In this document: piece after piece, positions 4,668 to 55,274 of the stretch
Numbering within the stretch: the first letter of the stretch is position 1
Layout of the letters: each line of letters begins with the position of its first letter
NCBI GenBank assembly: GCA_964588955.1
Contig: CAZPQJ010000001.1
Coordinates: 10,155 to 74,154 of the forward strand
Origin: an uncultured Gammaproteobacteria bacterium
GTDB taxonomy: Bacteria; Patescibacteriota; Patescibacteriia; UBA9934; CAMTUG01
DNA length: 64,000 bases
Reading direction: 5' to 3'
Notes under the pieces: generated by a model
Told to the model about the DNA's origin: nothing
Database searches by the model: none
What the model saw: only the letters and a program-made list of their open reading frames with translations
Translations under genes and position numbers: made by a program

Positions 4668-5747
4668 TTAGAAGTTTTTGTATCCCTGATACGCTTCTAG
4701 TTGCGTTGCAAAGACAATCGTACCATTGTCGGCGTAGGGCTTGATGGCTTCGAGAAGTTCTTGGATGAGGGGGAGGTGTTCGTCGAATAAGGTGAGGGGG
4801 ATGTGGATGTTCAGGCGTGCCACGCGGCTGCGATCGCGAATAGTGTCGGCTTGTTTAATGTAATCCACCACGGCGGCGATGTCTGCTTCATCAAATACGC
4901 AATCAGGATTGCAGGTACTACGTCCTTCGGCAATGGATCCTAATTCACCAATCTCTCCACCCATGATGGTCAATACGCCATCGTTATCTGGCACCAAGTC
5001 TGCCGTGTCTTTCAAATCATACAAATACAACCGATCGGCAAAGTCTGGAGGGATACTGTCGTGGTAGGCCACCATGTTGATGTAGACATCGGTGAAGCCT
5101 TCTGGCCGAGCGCTCATAGGCATAGAAAGATAGCCGAGGGCGGTGAGTCCATCGAGAAATTTGAACCCGCCTTGCGCGGCGGCTTGCACCCAGTTGTCTT
5201 CGGCAAATCCGCCAGAGACCCCCTGGTTGTTCTCTGCACCGACGAGCGCGTCGACGTAGGATTTACCTTCAGCGTATAAGGCGGCGTACTCAGGAATCGT
5301 AACCGTCTCACCATCTGGCAAGTGAAATCCCGCATGGGTGCCAACGCCATGCCCGCGGTCGAGCACTTCTTTCATAATATTGACTCCCCAAATGGTATTC
5401 GCTTTGGCGAACGGTTCAGCGCTCTCTACGGTCATTTTGGCACCGAAGGTATCGAACAGATTCATCGCGTTGCGCAAGATGGCTACGTGACGATGGAATA
5501 GGGGTTCGATGGTGTCGTCTTTCCAGTCTTCTTCCATGTGGGTCATGGTGGTGAAGTACAGGGGTGCATCGGTGCGTTGCTGGACTGTTGGAATATTCGC
5601 CGTTGTATTGGTTGTTGAGGTGTTGGTGGAAGGTGTTGATGTCTTCGTAAGCGTAAAAAAGGTGATGCCACCGGCCAAGGCGGCTAGGCCAATGGAGAAG
5701 ATGGCGAGGTTGACGTGTTTGAAATTCATACGTGTGGAGCTTAGCAC
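4668..5747 (-). CDS. hypothetical secreted/membrane-anchored protein
   Basis: 359 aa; N-terminal hydrophobic anchor followed by a Thr/Ser/Asn-rich linker and a globular domain; no motif recognised. Confidence 0.5.
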   Translation of the reverse strand: MLSSTRMNFKHVNLAIFSIGLAALAGGITFFTLTKTSTPSTNTSTTNTTANIPTVQQRTDAPLYFTTMTHMEEDWKDDTIEPLFHRHVAILRNAMNLFDTFGAKMTVESAEPFAKANTIWGVNIMKEVLDRGHGVGTHAGFHLPDGETVTIPEYAALYAEGKSYVDALVGAENNQGVSGGFAEDNWVQAAAQGGFKFLDGLTALGYLSMPMSARPEGFTDVYINMVAYHDSIPPDFADRLYLYDLKDTADLVPDNDGVLTIMGGEIGELGSIAEGRSTCNPDCVFDEADIAAVVDYIKQADTIRDRSRVARLNIHIPLTLFDEHLPLIQELLEAIKPYADNGTIVFATQLEAYQGYKNF

Positions 5748-5798
5748 AGCGGCGTAAAAAAACGAATCAGGAGCCGGCGAGTAGCCAGGCTCCTGCGG

Positions 5799-6164
5799 TT
5801 AGCGGGGGTGGTGACGCGGATGCTTGTCGCGGACGAGGGCGGGGATGGGCTCAAGAGGAGCAAGACGCAGAACAATGAGAATGTGTGATTCCGGGTAGTC
5901 GGCGGCAACACCGTCGGCGAGCTGGTCGAGGGAGTGTTCTTCTTTCAGCGCCTCGAGTGTCGCAAAGCGCCAATGGTCAGCGACACGGAAGCGGCAGGTT
6001 TGCTCCGGGGTGGTGTTGTAAACTACAACAACGTCTCCGTCTTCAAATCCGCCGTAGAATTCGTGAGTGGTTGTTACCACGAAGCACTTTTTTCCGGCTC
6101 GGATCTGCGTGAAGTCTACTGAACTTACACGCACGCGTCGCGCCAATTTTCTTTGTCGGCTCAT
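5799..6164 (-). CDS. ASCH (PUA-like) domain protein, tentative
   Basis: Start refined to the Met preceded by GGAGGA (RC) 4 nt upstream; small beta-barrel-like protein resembling the ASCH fold. Confidence 0.4.
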   Translation of the reverse strand: MSRQRKLARRVRVSSVDFTQIRAGKKCFVVTTTHEFYGGFEDGDVVVVYNTTPEQTCRFRVADHWRFATLEALKEEHSLDQLADGVAADYPESHILIVLRLAPLEPIPALVRDKHPRHHPR

Positions 6165-6208
6165 GGTTTCCTCCAGGCGGCGTATTCTTCCTGTTTTCTG
6201 TTGTTCTG

Positions 6209-7231
6209 TCAAGGCTGGCGCGAGGCTTCGACTGCGGCGATAATCTTTTTGGCAACGGTGACGGCGCGTTCGGGCGTTTCGCTGATGGCCGTTTCTTTAC
6301 AGAGCATCACTGCCGAAGCGCCATCAAGGCAGGTGTTGGTGAGGTCGAGAATATCCGAACGCATCGGTAGGTAGTTTTCTAAAAGCGACTGTAGCATGCC
6401 AGTGGAAACAATCACGTACTTGCCGGCTCTGCGCGCCTTAGCAACAAGCATTTTTTGAATAAGCCCAAGGCGTTCGAACGGTACCGTGAGCGCTAAATCC
6501 CCACGAGCCACCATGATGCCGTGAGCGAGTTTCATAATTTCTTCGATGTTGTCGATCCCGCCCTGAGACTCGATTTTGGCGATGACAAGCGGTTGCCAGT
6601 CAGGTGTTGTTACTCGCGCAAGTTTTTGTATTAAGCGCTCGAGCATGTGCCGGGAGCTCACAAACGAAAAAGCCACCATCTCCGGTTTACTTTTGGGAAG
6701 CTCAGCGAGAATGGCGTCGAGTTCGTCGGTGACGTGATCAAGTTGGTCCGTAAGTTTTTCGCACGTGATGGCACAACGATTGTATAAAGCACCATTGTTC
6801 ATGGCACGAGCATGAAATTGATCGGCATGGTCGGTGGTCGTAACTTCAAATTGCAACTGGCCGTCGCCGGTATAAAAAAGATCGCCCATATTGAGCTGTG
6901 AGGCTAAATGCGGATAGGCAACGGGGATGAATTGTTCTACGTCGTCGGTCGATTGCGCGCTTACAAAGGTGTAAATTTTGTCTTGTACGAGTTTGATACT
7001 GACATCAGGGATTTTGCCAATGCGGATTTTTGCTTCCGGCAAGTCAGCCAACAAGCGCGCACCTTTGCCGTGGGCATCTACTTGCGCCCGGGCGGCTTGC
7101 AGCGAGGCACTAACTTTTGCTAAGTCCGCATGAGAAAACTTCATGCGAAAAACATCAACGCCCGCTTCGAGCATTTTTTGATTGCGCTCGGCGTAGTAAG
7201 GGTCTTTCCAAATGGTGGCGATGACGTCCAT
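6209..7231 (-). CDS. pyk: pyruvate kinase (A+B domains only, C-terminal domain absent)
   Basis: Aligns by eye to PykF: FSHADLAKV.. (NFSHG region), IAKIESQGGIDNIEEI, IMVARGDLALTVP (MVARGDLG), VIVSTGMLQSL, DGASAVMLCKETA (DGTDAVMLSGESA); the ORF ends near the A-domain boundary. Confidence 0.8.
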   Translation of the reverse strand: MDVIATIWKDPYYAERNQKMLEAGVDVFRMKFSHADLAKVSASLQAARAQVDAHGKGARLLADLPEAKIRIGKIPDVSIKLVQDKIYTFVSAQSTDDVEQFIPVAYPHLASQLNMGDLFYTGDGQLQFEVTTTDHADQFHARAMNNGALYNRCAITCEKLTDQLDHVTDELDAILAELPKSKPEMVAFSFVSSRHMLERLIQKLARVTTPDWQPLVIAKIESQGGIDNIEEIMKLAHGIMVARGDLALTVPFERLGLIQKMLVAKARRAGKYVIVSTGMLQSLLENYLPMRSDILDLTNTCLDGASAVMLCKETAISETPERAVTVAKKIIAAVEASRQP

Positions 7232-42001: not shown

Positions 42002-43255
42002 ATGAAACTCGTCGTTGTTGGAACAGGATACGTTGGTCTTGCCTGCGTCGGATTTACCGACTGGGGGCACACGGTGGTTGGGGTAGACATCGACGCCCAA
42101 AAAATCGAACAAATCAATCGAGGTGTGCTGCCGATTGTCGAGCCTGGATTGCCGGAGCTCATCGACAAAGCCACGGCTTCGGGACTTTTGTCGTTTACGA
42201 CCGATCTTGCTTCTGCCGTGAAAGACGCTGACGTTTGTTTTATTTGCGTCGGTACTCCGTCACTTGCCGACGGCAGCGCGGACTTGCAATATGTGGAAGC
42301 GGCGGTGGCTTCGGTGCGCACGGTGATGGATCCATCGACGGCGCTGGTTATTAAAAGTACCGTGCCAGTTGGTACATGCGAGCGACTCGGCTGCGCATCA
42401 AACCCTGAGTTTTTGCGCGAGGGGAGAGCCTTGCAGGATTTTTTGCATCCAGATCGTGTTGTTATTGGATCAAACGATCAAGCGACGATCGATGCATTGC
42501 TTAAATTGTATGCCTCGGCCGACGCGCCTAAATTGACGATGGCGCCAGCATCTTCGGAACTCACCAAGTACGCTGCCAACGGATTTTTGGCTACCAAGAT
42601 TTCGTTTGTCAACGAGATCGCGGCGATTGCCGAGAAGGTGGGTGCGGACATTCGTGATGTTACGAAAGCGATCGGACTTGACCCGCGGATCGGTCCACAC
42701 TTTTTGCGCGCCGGCATTGGCTATGGCGGTTCGTGCTTTCCCAAAGACACGGAGGCGCTCATGAAGATTGCTGGGCTTAACGAAGTTGATTTTGAAATGT
42801 TGCGTGCGGCGAGTGTTGCCAACGACCGAGCGCGTGAGCGGTTTGTCGACAAAGTTGTGTCTTCTCTCCCCCTTACCGGCAAGGGGGGGTTGGAGGGGGT
42901 CAAACTCGCCGTCTGGGGACTTGCTTTCAAAGCGCAAACCGACGACGTGCGTAAGTCCGCAGCGATAGATGTGATCGAACTTTTGCTTGTTAGAGGTGCT
43001 TCGGTCACCGCCTTCGATCCAGAGGCGATGGAGAACGCAAAAACTATCTTCGGCGATCGTGTGGTCTACGCCACTTCGGCACGTGACGCACTGACAGACG
43101 CTTCAGCCGTGCTCGTGCTCACCGAATGGTCAGAGTTCGCGGAGGCGGCTAAACAGATTCCGCCGACGATGAAGATTTTTGACGGTCGTAACCTGCTCGC
43201 GGATTTGCATTTGCCAAACTATGTCGGTGTGGGCTTGGGTCAGGCGCATTCCTAA
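42002..43255 (+). CDS. ugd: UDP-glucose/GDP-mannose dehydrogenase family (nucleotide-sugar 6-dehydrogenase)
   Basis: 417 aa; N-terminal GTGYVGL NAD-binding site, catalytic GGSCFPKD Cys motif. Confidence 0.85.
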   Translation: MKLVVVGTGYVGLACVGFTDWGHTVVGVDIDAQKIEQINRGVLPIVEPGLPELIDKATASGLLSFTTDLASAVKDADVCFICVGTPSLADGSADLQYVEAAVASVRTVMDPSTALVIKSTVPVGTCERLGCASNPEFLREGRALQDFLHPDRVVIGSNDQATIDALLKLYASADAPKLTMAPASSELTKYAANGFLATKISFVNEIAAIAEKVGADIRDVTKAIGLDPRIGPHFLRAGIGYGGSCFPKDTEALMKIAGLNEVDFEMLRAASVANDRARERFVDKVVSSLPLTGKGGLEGVKLAVWGLAFKAQTDDVRKSAAIDVIELLLVRGASVTAFDPEAMENAKTIFGDRVVYATSARDALTDASAVLVLTEWSEFAEAAKQIPPTMKIFDGRNLLADLHLPNYVGVGLGQAHS

Positions 43256-44633
43256 ACAGCTCGGGTTGCACACGCGACACCCTTCTTGGCAGTTGAGTTT
43301 TGTTTTACTCGCTTTTTTGCTGGGCATTGGTATCCATTCGTGGATCGTGACGCCGTTGCCATTTTTCCCCATGCTCACCGCCGCGCTTGGCGCGCTCACC
43401 GCGGCAGTATTTTTGCTCGGCCATCATCGCCTCGCTCTCGTGGCGTTTATGATCAGCGCTTGTCTTTTTGGTCTTGCGCGTTACGCGGTGAGTTTTCCGA
43501 GCCAAGGCGCGGACTCCATCGCGGGTGCCATCGGATCGGAAGTGCGTCTTGATGGCACGATCGTCAACGATCCGTCATCTGCCGAAGAACGTCAGGAAGT
43601 GATTTTAGATTACATCAGCGTCAACGACGCTCCGCGACAAAACAAGATCGTTGCCTACTTTGCCCGTTATCCTGATTTGTCGTATGGCTGGCGGCTGTCG
43701 TTTCGTTGTCGGCTAGAGGAACCAAAAGCCATCGAAGGCTTCGACTATCCGCGTTATCTGTTGAAAGACGGTATTGTCGCCATCTGTTTTTCCGGCGATG
43801 AACCCATGGTCGTTTCTCGCGCGGCGGATCATCCTGTCCGTGCCGTTTTGTACGCCTTGCGAGATACGATTGAAGCGTTGTTCCATCGTGCCTTGCCAGA
43901 ACCGGCCGCCAGCATCTCCGCTGGCTTGCTGCTCGGCATCAAAACGCTTCCGGAAAAACTCGACGCCATCTTTCGCGCCGTTGGTGTCAGTCATATTTTC
44001 GCTGCCTCGGGGTCGAATGTTGCCATGGTGTTGATGGTGTTCGCGAGCGCTCTTTCTTATGTGGTTCGTCGGCAAAAAGCTTTTTGGATGCTGCTGCTTT
44101 TAACTGGCGTCTATGTTGTTTTAGCGGGCGCGGAAGCGGCCGTAGTGCGAGCGGGGATTATGGCTGCCGCCGTGCTCATTGCCACTCACACGGGCCGAGC
44201 AACCACGCCGCGCAATCTTATTTTGCTTGCCGCCGCCTTAATGCTCGCCGCAAACCCACGACTGTTGCGCGACGATGTTGGCTTTCAACTATCCGTTCTC
44301 GCTACATCGGGCATGGCCTTGCTTTCCAAGCCCGTTGGTGAGCGCTTGGAGTTTCTCCCTCAAGCATTTGGCGTGCGTGAAGCGCTGGCCACCACCATCT
44401 CCGCGAGCATCTTTACTTTGCCGATTATGATCCTCAACTTCCACCAGTTCAGTCTTGTTTCCCCCATCGCCAATCTGTTGATTCTCCCTCTCGTTCCCTA
44501 CGCTATGGTTTTTTCAACCGTGGCCGCCGCCTTGGTAGCTGTTGTGCCAGCAGCGGGAATCGCGGTCGGCGGACTAGCTTGGGGAGTAGAACGTCTGATT
44601 GTGATAATTGCCACCGCTCTTGCCGCCTTATGA
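43179..44633 (+). CDS. comEC: ComEC/Rec2 competence channel (membrane domain portion)
   Basis: Polytopic membrane protein with DUF4131-like N-terminus and competence-domain TM helices; start uncertain (43221 or 43371 are alternatives); stop overlaps the next ORF. Confidence 0.75.
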   Translation: MTVVTCSRICICQTMSVWAWVRRIPKQLGLHTRHPSWQLSFVLLAFLLGIGIHSWIVTPLPFFPMLTAALGALTAAVFLLGHHRLALVAFMISACLFGLARYAVSFPSQGADSIAGAIGSEVRLDGTIVNDPSSAEERQEVILDYISVNDAPRQNKIVAYFARYPDLSYGWRLSFRCRLEEPKAIEGFDYPRYLLKDGIVAICFSGDEPMVVSRAADHPVRAVLYALRDTIEALFHRALPEPAASISAGLLLGIKTLPEKLDAIFRAVGVSHIFAASGSNVAMVLMVFASALSYVVRRQKAFWMLLLLTGVYVVLAGAEAAVVRAGIMAAAVLIATHTGRATTPRNLILLAAALMLAANPRLLRDDVGFQLSVLATSGMALLSKPVGERLEFLPQAFGVREALATTISASIFTLPIMILNFHQFSLVSPIANLLILPLVPYAMVFSTVAAALVAVVPAAGIAVGGLAWGVERLIVIIATALAAL

Positions 44634-45499
44634 AACACGAGAAACAGCTCGGTGTTGCGGGCACGCTCATCATCACTGCTGCGTTGGTGGTGTTTAGCTG
44701 GCTGCAGGCGGGGCACGCTATTGGTTCACCGCGATTGATCGTGTGGTTTTTTGATGTGGGTCAGGGCGACGCCATTTTTATTGAAAGTCCTACCGGGCAC
44801 CAAGTGCTGATTGATGGTGGACCAAACGATGCTGTGTTGGAAAAGCTTTCCGACGTGATGCCCTTTTGGGATCGTTCGATTGATGACGTCATTAACACCC
44901 ATCCGCATGCCGATCACTTAGACGGTCTGGTTGATGTTGTTGATCGCTACGCGGTTAGTCGTGTTTATCAAACTGGTATCGAATATTACACCCCACTACG
45001 TCCAGAGTTTAATCAACGCACGAGTGATGGGGAAGAGTTGATAGATGTATTGCAACCGACGGATCTCGATCTCGGCGGTGGGGTCGTATTGCACATCATC
45101 TATCCGACGTCGTCATTTGTTGGACAAAAAGTTGACGACCCGAATCAAACATCGATTGTTGCGTTACTCACCTATGGTGACACGTCTGTGTTACTAACGG
45201 GGGACACCACCGCAGAGAACGAACCAGAACTTCAATCACTGCTCACCGATCCTGTCGACGTGCTCAAAGTGGCTCACCATGGCAGTGCCTATTCTTCTAC
45301 CATGCCTTTTTTGCAAACCATCCATCCCCGCTACGCCATCATCTCCTGCGGCGTTAACAATGATTATGGCCATCCCGCCTCGTCTACCTTGGAGCGCCTT
45401 CGAGCCATCGGCGCGCAAACCTTTCGTACAGATTTACAAGGCGATATTCGTTTGATTTCTGATGGGGGAGAGCCGCAGCTGCTTGCGATCCCGCTTTAG
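44630..45499 (+). CDS. ComEC C-terminal metallo-beta-lactamase domain encoded as a separate ORF
   Basis: HPHADHLDG motif (HxHxDH); start ATG overlaps the comEC stop (ATGA). Confidence 0.75.
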   Translation: MKHEKQLGVAGTLIITAALVVFSWLQAGHAIGSPRLIVWFFDVGQGDAIFIESPTGHQVLIDGGPNDAVLEKLSDVMPFWDRSIDDVINTHPHADHLDGLVDVVDRYAVSRVYQTGIEYYTPLRPEFNQRTSDGEELIDVLQPTDLDLGGGVVLHIIYPTSSFVGQKVDDPNQTSIVALLTYGDTSVLLTGDTTAENEPELQSLLTDPVDVLKVAHHGSAYSSTMPFLQTIHPRYAIISCGVNNDYGHPASSTLERLRAIGAQTFRTDLQGDIRLISDGGEPQLLAIPL

Positions 45500-45577
45500 A
45501 GCCCGTTTTCTGGTCGAGCGGCGATCTTGACGAAGAAGCACGAGACTGCTAGGATTAGCCCAATAAAATTTTGTCCT

Positions 45578-46036
45578 ATGGCTCAGACACAGCGCACCCT
45601 CATTTTAATCAAGCCAGACGCGCTCCAGCGCGATTTGGTCGGCGAGATCGTTCACCGTTTTGAGCGTAAAGGGCTCAAAATTGTTGCCATGAAAATGATT
45701 CAGCTTGGCGACGCGGTTTTGGACGTCCACTACGCTCATTTGGCCGATAAACCGTTCTTCCCAGGCTTGAAGGACTTCATGATGTCTTCACCAGTCATTG
45801 CTATGGTGCTGGAAGGTGTGGAGGCCGTTGGAGCTGTGCGCTTGATTTTGGGTCCCACCAAAGCCTACGAAGCCGATGCCGGATCGATTCGCGGCGACTT
45901 GGCCATTGCCGTGGCTTCCAACCTGGTGCACGCTTCCGATTCTGCGGAGTCGGCGGTAGCAGAAATTGATCGATTCTTCGCGCCAAACGAGCTGTTTGCC
46001 TACGAGAAAATCACCGACAAGTTGTTCAACGACTAA
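45578..46036 (+). CDS. ndk: nucleoside diphosphate kinase
   Basis: Start refined to MAQTQRTLILIKPDA; NDK active-site His region (VHASDS). Confidence 0.9.
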   Translation: MAQTQRTLILIKPDALQRDLVGEIVHRFERKGLKIVAMKMIQLGDAVLDVHYAHLADKPFFPGLKDFMMSSPVIAMVLEGVEAVGAVRLILGPTKAYEADAGSIRGDLAIAVASNLVHASDSAESAVAEIDRFFAPNELFAYEKITDKLFND

Positions 46037-46057
46037 TCGACATATCCACACGTCGAT

Positions 46058-46262
46058 TTGACGGTAAAATAGCGCGACCGTATCATAGACTCCGTTATGA
46101 AATCACAAGCCTGGCACACCTTTACGCTTACGACCCGCGCAATTGATTGCGTCGATTTTGCGCTTCCGTATGCGTTAGCGATGGCCAGGATGGGACACTA
46201 AGGTTTCTTAGATCAATTCCAACCGACCATCGCTCGAGAAGAGTGGTGGTCGGTTTCGTTTC
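46058..46262 (+). promoter_or_regulatory. promoter plus leader L0: TTGACG-17-TATCAT, 34-codon upstream ORF (46097..46201), hairpin plus T-rich tract
   Basis: ATGAAATCA start 10 nt after the -10; peptide MKSQAWHTFTLTTRAIDCVDFALPYALAMARMGH; hairpin CCGACCA...TGGTCGG at 46223..46253 followed by TTTCGTTTCG. Confidence 0.45.
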
Positions 46263-46323
46263 GTGGTCGGATTCTGTGGCGAAGGTTGTTGCCGTAGACT
46301 CCGCCCTCTAAACCCAGGGTGGA

Positions 46324-46530
46324 ATGGAGCTGTCGATGACGAATGGTGATCGCACCGCCCCGACGACGGGCACGAACTCCACTTTCCGCTGCGCCGCCCT
46401 GCGTAGTCTTTCCGATGTGATGTTGGGTGACCCGCCGACCCAGCCGCTGCCGGCGCTTCAGCCGCCGCTCGATCGACACATGGTCGGTGTCTGCTGCACC
46501 CCCAATCCGCCCAACCGGCACCGTCTCTAG
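46324..46530 (+). CDS. small high-GC hypothetical protein (sORF1), Pro-rich C-terminus
   Basis: 68 aa; GC3-rich; GGGTGGA just upstream of ATG; followed by a hairpin (46562..46590) homologous to the one after sORF2. Confidence 0.4.
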   Translation: MELSMTNGDRTAPTTGTNSTFRCAALRSLSDVMLGDPPTQPLPALQPPLDRHMVGVCCTPNPPNRHRL

Positions 46531-46665
46531 TCTCTGTTCTTTCCTTCGTTTTCTTCCCGCGCCGGCTCGTCGAGTTTCTCTCCGAGCCGGCCGACCACAC
46601 CTTTGCGACGTGTAACTGTGGATCGGAATCCTCCGATTCATTGAACCCACCGCAGAGGATTCCCC

Positions 46666-47139
46666 ATGCCGAAGTCTCAGCGCCGATACGACTCTCTCGT
46701 GTTTGTGGACGTCTCGTGGTGCGACCCGGACCGTCGCCGTGGACCGAACCGCCTGACCATTTCCCAGAAGGTCGCGGACGAGCTCGGTTTCAGCGCTGGG
46801 TGTACGGTCGTACTGCGTGTCTACACCAGCATGCCTACGAAGACCACTGTCATCCGTCCGTTCCCCGCCTACGATCTCCTGGGCTCATGCCAGGTTGTGG
46901 TCAAGGAACAGATCGATCGCCCGAGGCTTGCTGGGGAGCTTTTGTCCAAAGCCAAGGAACAGGGTGGTGTCATCGTTTCTGCCGTCAGGGTGCGAGACAA
47001 GGGTCGCATCATCTGCTACAGGCACAACGATCAGAAGTTGACGCGTTCCGGAATCAATTCCGTTTCCGTCAGTCGTGCCAACGCCGCCAACGTCGACGAA
47101 AACACGGACAGCTTCGTCCCCATCCCACAGACCGCCTAG
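46666..47139 (+). CDS. small high-GC hypothetical protein (sORF2), possibly with AbrB/SpoVT-like swapped-hairpin segments
   Basis: 157 aa; GAGGA RBS 8 nt upstream; GC3-rich; NRLTISQKVADELGFSAGCTVVLRV resembles a looped-hinge DNA-binding motif (weak, by eye); terminator hairpin at 47162..47192. Confidence 0.5.
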   Translation: MPKSQRRYDSLVFVDVSWCDPDRRRGPNRLTISQKVADELGFSAGCTVVLRVYTSMPTKTTVIRPFPAYDLLGSCQVVVKEQIDRPRLAGELLSKAKEQGGVIVSAVRVRDKGRIICYRHNDQKLTRSGINSVSVSRANAANVDENTDSFVPIPQTA

Positions 47140-47204
47140 TTCGCTCCTTCTTCTTCCTCGTGACTGGCTCGTGAGTTCTCTCCGAGCCAGTCCAGCCCCT
47201 TTTA

Positions 47205-47436
47205 TTGACAATTATTGACCAGTTTTGTATCCTCAACCCATCGCTATGAAATCAATTGCCTTGTACTTTAGCCTCGGCTTTAGCGGGTTTACTCCCGGGG
47301 CGGTTGATGTTGCATAGAAGCTAGATTCTTTGAACATCAGGCCGCCGCAAGGGCGGTTTTTTGGTTGCTGATTTGATCAAGACTTGTCCGAACAAGTCTT
47401 GCAGAGTCTACAACCTTCCGTGCCTCAGGGGTTCCC
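47205..47436 (+). promoter_or_regulatory. promoter plus leader L1 for ATP-grasp 1
   Basis: TTGACA(47205)-N4-TTGACC, 17-nt spacer, TATCCT(47228); uORF 47246..47317 (MKSIALYFSLGFSGFTPGAVDVA); hairpin CCGCC-GCAAG-GGCGG plus T6 (47343..47362); second perfect 9-bp-stem hairpin 47378..47401. Confidence 0.55.
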
Positions 47437-48763: not shown

Positions 48764-49025
48764 TTGACAACTCTTGATCTACTCTTTACGATAAGGATAA
48801 AGCTATGTCATCAATGAATTTCAGCATCGACGTTTCTGAATCGTTGTCTTCAACGCCAAAGGTTGTTGCCGGTTTGCTTTTGAACCTCGACCTTCTTCCT
48901 TAGGGTCGCCTGGTTCCTTGTTACATCATGGAGTTGGACGACCCGATTGAATGGGTCGTTTTTGTTTGTCTGTGCTGTTGACTAGGGGTCTGAATGATCA
49001 GATCTCTTGAAACAGCGGAGTCAAC
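48764..49025 (+). promoter_or_regulatory. promoter plus leader L2 for ATP-grasp 2
   Basis: TTGACA(48764)-N4-TTGATC, 17-nt spacer, TACGAT(48787); AAGGA RBS then uORF 48805..48903 (MSSMNFSIDVSESLSSTPKVVAGLLLNLDLLP); hairpin ACGACCC-GATTGAAT-GGGTCGT plus T5 (48939..48964); long-range stem GTTGACT...AGTCAAC abutting the start codon. Confidence 0.55.
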
Positions 49026-54629: not shown

Positions 54630-55274
54630 ATGCTTCGCAGCCACTTTACGAGAACGGAATGGCAAATACTACGGCAACTGAATACTCCCAAAAAGATTCA
54701 GGACTTTTTGAATACCCTGCCGCAAAGTTTTAGTAAGCACGGGCAAGAGTGTCGCTCGCCTCGGCGGGTGTTGCGTGAGGGAAGCGCCTATTGTTTGGAA
54801 GGAGCGATGCTTGCCGTCTTGGCTCTGCGTGTTCATGGACATCGACCACTGCTCTTAGATCTCACCTCGCATGATAGTGATGATGATCACGTTGTTGCTT
54901 TGTTCCAACACAACGGTTGCTGGGGGGCGATTTCCAAAACGAATCACGCGGTCTTGCGCTATCGCGAGCCGATCTACCGATCCGTTCGCGAACTTGTGAT
55001 GAGTTACTTTCATGAATACTTTTTGCAGCGCGGTGGCAGAAAAACTTTACGTTCCTACGCCGTTGCGGATGTGTCTAAATTTGATCGTCGAGGATGGATG
55101 ACCGATGAAGAAGATCTGTGGTACATCGCTGAGCACTTGTGTGACATTCCGCACAAGCAAGTTTTAACGCGATCGCAAATCGCCGGTTTGCGTCCAGCCG
55201 ACGCGATTGAAATCCAAGCGGGGGAGTTGCTTGAGTGGCGAAAGGGTCAGGGATCTTTTAAGAAAAGTGTATAG
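54630..55274 (+). CDS. transglutaminase-like / papain-fold cysteine peptidase domain protein (tentative)
   Basis: Candidate catalytic Cys in GSAYCLEGAMLAVLALRVHG, downstream His (DHVVALFQHNGCW) and Asp; start uncertain (TTG at 54483, or ATG at 54630 directly after an extended -10 TGTTACAAT). Confidence 0.4.
   Translation: MLRSHFTRTEWQILRQLNTPKKIQDFLNTLPQSFSKHGQECRSPRRVLREGSAYCLEGAMLAVLALRVHGHRPLLLDLTSHDSDDDHVVALFQHNGCWGAISKTNHAVLRYREPIYRSVRELVMSYFHEYFLQRGGRKTLRSYAVADVSKFDRRGWMTDEEDLWYIAEHLCDIPHKQVLTRSQIAGLRPADAIEIQAGELLEWRKGQGSFKKSV

Follow-up and report, generated by a model that had tools for sequence, protein, structure and literature searches.

Two small open reading frames (ORFs), sORF1 and sORF2, head a four-gene ATP-grasp ligase island in a 64,000-nt stretch of contig CAZPQJ010000001.1 (assembly GCA_964588955.1, positions 10,155 to 74,154), referred to below as the window. 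We tentatively read the pair as a lineage-specific accessory operon, possibly gated by an attenuator, that heads an island of PGM1-like ligases in a Uhrbacteria-like bacterium of the Candidate Phyla Radiation (CPR). The MurA encoded in the window shares 65–68% identity with Candidatus Uhrbacteria and Patescibacteria metagenome-assembled genomes. CPR/Patescibacteria have small genomes, and most of their lineage-specific genes are without known function.

The original prediction had described sORF2 as a 157-aa ORF with a GAGGA ribosome binding site, and both were found: the GAGGA lies at 46654–46658, 7 nt before the ATG. Gene calls for it exist in both NCBI and Logan. Its codon score (0.258; log-likelihood ratio trained on the ligases) is above that of every off-frame ligase window and inside the in-frame distribution. 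A Logan contig from a strain variant (L001) carries syntenic ComEC, LactB, ndk, the leader L0, sORF1 and sORF2, and ends just past sORF2; the two strains are contained in the sequencing runs SRR16481186 and SRR17347193. Between the window and this variant sORF2 is 87% identical, with a ratio of nonsynonymous to synonymous substitution rates (dN/dS) of 0.29 at a dS of 0.24, compared with 0.08–0.15 for the housekeeping neighbours. The substitutions are distributed 7/13/28 over the three codon positions, which is a third-position excess (p=7e-4), and synonymous changes are likewise in excess (p=1e-4). The changes as a whole cluster in residues 1–20 and 108–148, and residues 72–107 are invariant in the two strains. 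To judge from these comparisons, sORF2 is a real protein-coding gene under moderate purifying selection.

Relatives of sORF2 were sought in several collections. A word-indexed search of 5.8 billion clustered proteins returned only the strain variant, and an exhaustive HMMER search of 1.84 billion representatives (~15 billion proteins) gave nothing genuine beyond it; one extra HMMER match, P0004, was rejected, being a tandem DNA repeat that had been spuriously translated. No homolog was found in GTDB genomes, JGI metagenomes or plasmids, and no significant match among the PDB sequences. A resemblance to the Ig-like “D-x-G-x-Y-x-C” of pIgR domains was non-significant (E 0.09). Neither sORF1 nor sORF2 had a usable match in Pfam, NCBIfam, PHROGs or PADLOC, no internal repeat was found in sORF2, and no similarity was found between the two. 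The possibility that a fifth ligase had decayed and left the sORFs behind was also considered and discarded, as there is no similarity at the protein or DNA level. Rfam matched no RNA family in the island, at either gathering or E-value thresholds. By these searches sORF1 and sORF2 are lineage-specific orphans.

In a distant member of the Patescibacteria (L016), ndk, a leader, a single ATP-grasp gene, a GATase gene and murA stand in the same order, with neither sORF. This was the only syntenic relative with the ATP-grasp and GATase pair; its ATP-grasp protein is 24% identical to ligase 2 and its GATase 44%. Since the pair is kept there without the sORFs, sORF1 and sORF2 are, on the evidence of this locus, accessory to it. 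Within the window, both composition and codon usage agree with the earlier statement that the sORFs have the high GC of the ligase array. The GC content is 0.657 in sORF1, 0.593 in sORF2 and 0.59–0.62 in the four ATP-grasp genes, and 0.49–0.55 in the flanking genes; at third codon positions (GC3) it is 0.77, 0.73 and 0.68–0.79 for sORF1, sORF2 and the ligases, respectively, and the codon usage of both sORFs resembles that of the array. A similar excess is seen in L016, where the ATP-grasp gene (5119–6498) lies ~10 GC points over its neighbours (0.464 vs 0.36–0.40); the segment 46265–53382 of the window is likewise GC-raised (ATP-grasp 0.59 vs 0.52). Because the L016 gene shows the same excess, raised GC appears to be a property of the gene family or of the locus itself, and recent horizontal transfer is not required.

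Both sORFs lie behind the promoter P0 and the leader L0 (Table 1) with no other consensus promoter between, in line with the earlier proposal that L0 drives them. As no consensus promoter was found between the L0 terminator and sORF1, expression of sORF1 would depend on read-through. The L0 terminator alone folds with −26.3 kcal/mol and the whole leader has a structure z-score of −3.98, whereas the RNA structure of sORF1 is ordinary (z +0.44). The leader ORF stops 20 nt before the terminator. When the 3′ arm of the terminator is left out, its 5′ arm pairs with ~46181–46189, within the last leader codons, which gives a predicted antiterminator. The leader peptide contains the cluster TFTLTT, i.e., four Thr in six residues, and is without a run of three identical residues. 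In the strain variant both changes inside the Thr cluster are synonymous (ACG>ACT, ACC>ACT), and three further changes downstream alter the peptide. These features suggest a mechanism in which transcription from P0 would be gated by the near-leaderless 34-codon leader ORF with its Thr cluster: a ribosome arriving at the leader stop would melt the antiterminator and let the U-tailed terminator form, and stalling of the ribosome at the Thr codons would let transcription continue into sORF1 and sORF2. Gates of this kind would also control the four ligase genes, the amino-acid run differing from one gene to the next.

The layout is common to the leaders L0–L4 and the leader of L016. In each, the ATG lies 9–12 nt after the −10 hexamer, the ORF has 23–35 codons and the predicted antiterminator overlaps the end of the ORF; in L1–L4 and in L016 the ORF stops 17–35 nt before a U-tailed terminator. 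Runs of at least three identical residues are present in four of the six leader peptides (P=0.0014). As far as folding models can tell, the series resembles leader-peptide attenuation specific for single amino acids, here in a CPR bacterium. Classical leader-peptide attenuators are known from the thr, trp, his, leu, ilv and pheA operons of Enterobacteria. L0 resembles these in combining a short leader ORF, which has a putative cluster of codons for one amino acid, with a predicted antiterminator and a terminator that would exclude each other, the latter ending in a U-tail ahead of the structural genes. The series differs in its near-leaderless ORFs and in using two structures, with the 5′ arm of the antiterminator at the ORF stop. 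It also differs in its targets (orphan small proteins and ATP-grasp ligases instead of biosynthetic enzymes) and in its host, an amino-acid-auxotrophic CPR lineage, and the series is known here from sequence and folding. With five tandem units, each with an apparent classical attenuator on a near-leaderless transcript, the regulatory layout of the locus is unusually legible. In each leader an extra strong hairpin was also observed between the attenuator terminator and the downstream ribosome binding site, as at L0 (46273–46298), at 47376–47410, at 48977–49025 and in L016 (5013–5060), and the one in L2 pairs with sequence between the Shine-Dalgarno element and the AUG. These hairpins may add a second, translational control layer.

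Each sORF is followed by a CU-rich tract and a two-tier stem-loop, hairpins 1 and 2, with folding energies of −24.0 kcal/mol (z −4.4) and −23.4 kcal/mol (z −5.4). The regions behind the two stops align over ~55 nt, from ~8 nt past each TAG, through the CU-rich tract, the lower stem and the GAG/CUC upper stem, and share CTCTCCGAGCC exactly. The Smith-Waterman score of this alignment is 47 against a null of 15.4±2.6, and none of 1000 shuffles reached 47. At the base of the stem a C-G pair in one hairpin is replaced by U-A in the other, which is a compensatory change. Elsewhere in the island, gene-end regions show no significant pairwise similarity, and the motif is not a dispersed repeat, having two copies only in the window and none in 80 other CPR loci. 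The original prediction had called these elements near-identical terminator hairpins. GC-rich homologous stem-loops are indeed present, but a U-tract directly 3′ of the stem is absent in both: hairpin 1 is followed by CGACCACACCUUUG and hairpin 2 by CAGCCCCUUUUAUU, and a UUUU run starts 7 nt past the hairpin 2 stem and runs into the −35 hexamer of P1. The terminator scan called the leader terminators and did not call either hairpin. From their sequence, hairpins 1 and 2 are not canonical intrinsic terminators. Tail-less (“I-shaped”) terminators and 3′ mRNA-stabilising stem-loops are established kinds of element. As adjacent U-tracts are lacking, we propose that the hairpins most likely act as 3′ mRNA-stabilising stem-loops or as leaky tail-less terminators that would set the transcript ratios between units. 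They are like such elements in being stable, GC-rich, located 20–30 nt past the stop and free of an adjacent U-tract; peculiar to these two copies are the CU-rich tract and a stem in two tiers, in which an internal loop separates 8 bp of lower stem from the GAG/CUC upper stem.

The homology extends beyond the hairpins. The sequence after hairpin 1 (TTGCGA-18-AATCCT) aligns with the promoter P1 after hairpin 2 (TTGACA-17-TATCCT), and leaders L0 and L1 are paralogous in their promoters and starts (repeat D10). Because the hairpins, the promoter-like stretches downstream of them and the L0/L1 starts are paralogous, promoter-gene-hairpin units have been duplicated, which is more than the local duplication that had been read from the hairpins at the outset. 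The alignments establish the homology of the hairpins, CU-rich tracts and promoter-like stretches, which we interpret as paralogous module ends left by serial duplication. At the promoters P1–P3 (47205–47220, 48764–48779 and 50411–50429) a second TTGAY was observed 10–13 nt after the start of the −35 TTGACA (TTGACAATTATTGACC, TTGACAACTCTTGATC and TTGACAGAGCGTGTTGATT). These second elements could be operator half-sites or relics of duplication.

In the spacer between the sORFs, the degenerate paralog of P1 may be either an internal promoter of low strength or a relic. It is overlapped by a small hairpin whose pairing is maintained in the strain variant by two double changes. This palindrome was considered as a shared operator and rejected, as it has one copy only in the window. 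A second predicted pairing in the spacer (z −3.0) would sequester the Shine-Dalgarno element of sORF2.

Table 1. Positions of the features discussed (window coordinates, except for the leader of L016).
Feature	Position	Strand	Remarks
Promoter P0	46058..46086	+	TTGACG-17-TATCAT; 10/12 consensus matches; identical in L001
L0 leader ORF	46097..46201	+	MKSQAWHTFTLTTRAIDCVDFALPYALAMARMGH; 34 aa; ATG 10 nt after −10 hexamer; Thr cluster TFTLTT
L0 intrinsic terminator	46222..46265	+	14-bp stem 46222–46235/46241–46254, then U-rich tail UUUCGUUUCG
Two post-terminator hairpins	46273..46323	+	46273–46298; 46300–46307/46316–46323, the latter covering GGGUGGA before ATG 46324
sORF1	46324..46530	+	ORF list; 68 aa, or 64 aa if the start is ATG 46336
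CU-rich tract after sORF1 stop	46531..46560	+	homologous to 47140–47161
Hairpin 1	46561..46591	+	two-tier stem-loop; arms 46561–46569/46583–46591; no adjacent U-tract
Predicted pairing before sORF2	46600..46658	+	folding; CCUUUGCG (46600–46607) with CGCAGAGG (46651–46658)
Degenerate P1 paralog	46603..46632	+	TTGCGA-18-AATCCT; alignment; under scan threshold
Small hairpin/palindrome	46618..46641	+	folding; ATCGGA-AUCC-UCCGAU core; two base pairs changed on both sides in L001
sORF2	46666..47139	+	ORF list; 157 aa; pI 9.6; GAGGA ribosome binding site
CU-rich tract after sORF2 stop	47140..47161	+	alignment with the tract after sORF1
Hairpin 2	47162..47192	+	paralog of hairpin 1; arms 47162–47171/47183–47192
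Promoter P1 of next unit	47205..47233	+	scan; precedes leader L1 and ligase 1
Leader L0	46058..46265		residue cluster TFTLTT
Leader L1	47205..47365		residue cluster F..F..F
Leader L2	48764..48972		residue cluster LLLNLDLL
Leader L3	50411..50566		residue cluster YYY
Leader L4	51822..52010		residue cluster IIIDLVI
Leader of L016	4798..5008 (L016)		residue cluster IIII

Two segments of sORF2 had been predicted to resemble AbrB/SpoVT-type DNA-binding motifs. We used hhalign with sORF2 and its strain variant as query against nine aligned AbrB, MazE, SpoVT and MraZ domains that had been typed by hand. Residues 27–53 (PNRLTISQKVADELGFSAGCTVVLRVY) came out in register with AbrB 13–39 (beta2-alpha-beta3), a weak match to a hand-typed alignment (P=0.0069, probability 5.6%), and the second segment gave no signal. 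Pfam returned zero families for sORF2 at E≤1 and hence no PF04014 match, NCBIfam returned none, and phmmer against the PDB at E≤10 found no AbrB, MazE or SpoVT chain. AlphaFold2 monomer models of sORF2 are of unusable confidence, with predicted local distance difference test (pLDDT) scores of 32.8 (full length) and 45.6 (residues 1–76); the secondary-structure order in these low-confidence models is beta-beta-alpha-beta. The AbrB fold, a swapped-hairpin beta-barrel, is formed only by dimers. Foldseek found no match to the models in the PDB, and given this empty result and the low pLDDT the fold is not assignable. sORF2 weakly resembles the SpoVT/AbrB family (PF04014) in the register of residues 27–53, in the predicted order of elements and in being a basic protein. 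It differs in that the domain would begin at about residue 10 and not at the N-terminus, in a Pro replaced by Ser, and in the missing HMM and PDB matches. We treat the resemblance as a weak lead and not as an assignment. The isoelectric point (pI) of 9.6, the in-register alignment and the predicted beta-beta-alpha-beta order nevertheless make us lean towards sORF2 being a nucleic-acid-binding regulator or adaptor of the island, which might have an AbrB-like beta-alpha-beta N-terminal region.

All four ligases show ATP-grasp hallmarks and are paralogs of one another. Single-protein and profile searches of the protein database returned only the window's own proteins, and no homologs were found in JGI metagenomes or viral contigs; a five-sequence ligase alignment was too divergent to serve as a query. 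Against solved structures, a profile of the four ligases matched PGM1 (3wvq, E 8.9e-11), the “ATP-grasp peptide ligase” 8ynd (E 1.4e-9), on which we found nothing in the literature, and BesA (E 1e-5), all of which outrank biotin carboxylases and D-Ala-D-Ala ligases. The homology to PGM1 is remote, covers the C-terminal ATP-grasp core and is below any curated cut-off. In NCBIfam, ligase 3 matched BesA (E 1e-8). Ligase 1 alone matched the graspetide maturase model TIGR04187 (E 0.088, 12 bits vs a cut-off of 350) and rimK_fam (E 0.0057, 16 bits vs a cut-off of 143). RimK or graspetide maturases were rejected as identities for the ligases, as these matches are far below the cut-offs and the best solved relatives are PGM1, 8ynd and BesA instead of MdnC-type maturases. 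The acidic C-terminal Glu tail that is the hallmark of RimK/LysX acceptors is absent from sORF1 and sORF2, which end in NRHRL and PIPQTA, and so is a graspetide-like core: neither has a Thr/Ser-Asp/Glu-Lys motif, and sORF1 is without repeated T/S-x-D/E. The suggestion that the sORFs are substrates of the RimK or graspetide type did not hold up, the ligases being nearest to PGM1/BesA/biotin-carboxylase-like enzymes and the sORFs lacking both features. PGM1 attaches a nonproteinogenic acid to the N-terminal end of a ribosomally made peptide (PMC8939145, PMC8359417). The island resembles this pheganomycin PGM1/PGM2 system in that its ligases are remote relatives of PGM1 and small ORFs adjoin the ligase genes, and the underlying idea is that an ATP-grasp enzyme links an acid with a ribosomally made peptide (PMC8939145). 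It differs from it in the remoteness of the similarity, the four tandem paralogs, the absence of genes for nonproteinogenic acids, the candidate small ORFs (sORF1 and the leader ORFs), which, like sORF2, are unlike known precursor peptides, the CPR host in place of an actinomycete, and the related locus of L016, which is without sORFs.

A close homolog of CPR-C4 (PDB 7ob6, E 2e-61) is encoded at 54630–55274 of the window, directly downstream of the ligase array and the GATase gene. The gene looks leaderless, with TACAAT 8 nt before the ATG. Vasohibins reverse the action of the ATP-grasp enzyme tubulin tyrosine ligase, and it is for this reason that the adjacency to the ligases is suggestive. 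CPR-C4 is a vasohibin-like cysteine protease that is conserved in CPR and whose substrate is not known (PMC9108980). Its pocket points to an acidic substrate (PMC9108980). The adjacency to ligases is not kept in 80 other CPR murA loci.

sORF1 had been described as a 68-aa ORF with a Pro-rich C-terminus and a CC pair, all of which was found. It contains 10 Pro, nine of them within residues 36–63, and 8 Thr, with the CC pair at residues 57–58; there is no Lys, one Glu and four scattered Asp, and the C-terminus is NRHRL. A GGAG stands 6 nt before ATG 46336, and ligase 2 is arranged alike. The codon score of 0.175 is inside the in-frame ligase distribution, and 5% of off-frame ligase windows exceed it. 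Of the three forward frames at this locus it is the sole one with a positive score, and the alternative ORFs that overlap it on both strands have negative scores. In the strain variant, sORF1 differs by a single nonsynonymous change plus a 6-nt indel that keeps the frame; this low divergence is due to a near-identical block (44885–46585) that spans sORF1. We consider coding by sORF1 plausible and probable, though not proven; it would probably encode a Pro/Thr-rich disordered peptide of 64–68 aa.

Several observations weigh against an attenuator-gated accessory operon. The single substitution in sORF1 relative to the strain variant is too few for a selection test, and sORF1 is called as a gene in no source checked. 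The attenuator model is built on in-silico folding, and the sensed amino acid is guessed from a cluster with four Thr in six residues. The weak internal promoter may uncouple sORF2 from L0. With regard to a regulator role, the AbrB signal in sORF2 is under any accepted threshold, the sole invariant column of the AbrB family, a Pro, is Ser33 in sORF2, and the palindrome before sORF2 is absent at the other promoters, which leaves no operator motif. No homolog, domain or confident structure backs any function for either sORF. Some of these points would also fit sORF1 being an ORF that occurs by chance in a 5′ untranslated region rich in GC, with only sORF2 expressed, by read-through from P0 or from the weak internal promoter, and in a role unrelated to the ligases. 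The missing gene calls, the low divergence and the off-frame windows that reach the codon score of sORF1 favor this explanation, as do the long ORFs in several frames of this GC-rich stretch and the degenerate promoter ahead of sORF2. However, the sORF1 frame carries the GC3 signature of the island along with the only positive codon score locally, has the GGAG at the spacing found in ligase 2 and, like sORF2, has its own CU-rich tract and hairpin just past the stop. The indel in the strain variant is in frame, and sORF2 matches the ligases in codon usage, GC and unit architecture. We therefore regard a chance ORF as rather unlikely.

The pair may instead be tied to the ligases as a substrate. 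sORF1, and possibly sORF2, would then be a ribosomal acceptor, as PGM2 is for PGM1, with amino acids added to a free amine or to the C-terminus, the hairpin past sORF1 keeping the precursor transcript in excess and the nearby protease processing the product. As the ligases are related to PGM1, this is somewhat more attractive than it would otherwise be: the best solved relatives of their profile are PGM1, 8ynd and BesA, with NCBIfam naming BesA for ligase 3, and PGM1 acts on the N-terminus of a ribosomal peptide (PMC8939145, PMC8359417). sORF1 is small, contains Pro and Cys, has a ribosome binding site and is followed by a stem-loop without U-tail, and the gene of the vasohibin-like protease lies just downstream of the array (PMC9108980). 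Even so we think it unlikely to be correct. The PGM1 match is far under the family cut-offs, L016 has ATP-grasp and GATase genes without either sORF, the sORFs have neither an acidic C-terminus nor a graspetide-like core, and the island is without genes for nonproteinogenic acids. The protease adjacency is not kept elsewhere and the pocket of the enzyme points to an acidic substrate (PMC9108980), and sORF1 itself is a putative translated ORF. A larger version of the same idea, to which we give very little credence, is that the island is a programmable peptide-tailoring system: four PGM1-like ligases would stand behind Phe-, Leu-, Tyr- and Ile-rich leaderless attenuators, the Thr-gated unit would supply sORF1 and/or sORF2 as a scaffold, and the CPR-C4 protease would trim the product. 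If true, the tubulin tyrosine-ligase/vasohibin cycle would have a counterpart in bacteria, and the orphan CPR-C4 family would gain its first candidate substrate. Least probable of all, in our view, is a toxin-antitoxin-like unit or mobile-element cargo that landed beside the array, with an AbrB/MazE-like antitoxin fold in sORF2. The weakly AbrB/MazE-like N-terminal region, the two-gene unit and a composition unlike that of the flanking host genes would agree with it, but there is no match in PADLOC, PHROGs, Pfam, NCBIfam, plasmids or viral contigs, and the order and sizes misfit a typical ~80-aa AbrB-type antitoxin upstream of its toxin. Moreover, the architecture of promoter, leader and hairpin is common to the ligase units, and high GC is intrinsic to the ATP-grasp locus, L016 included. 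We thus keep, tentatively, the reading of an attenuator-gated accessory operon. Should the sORFs serve the ligases as scaffold or regulator, the locus would illustrate how an amino-acid-auxotrophic episymbiont couples its amino-acid supply to peptide ligation and could suggest a substrate for CPR-C4. Taken alone, they are orphan genes with homologous 3′ stem-loops, which is helpful for annotation and of modest interest.

The alignment of 43885–47139 of the window with the strain variant is a mosaic, with ~99–100% identity at 44885–46585 and 77–83% at 44485–44885 and 46585–46785. This mosaic indicates recombination between strains, with one apparent breakpoint just after hairpin 1. Further upstream, at 43179–45499, ComEC is split over two ORFs that overlap, one for the DUF4131/Competence part and the other for the metallo-beta-lactamase part, and the same split is present in L016 and other CPR loci.

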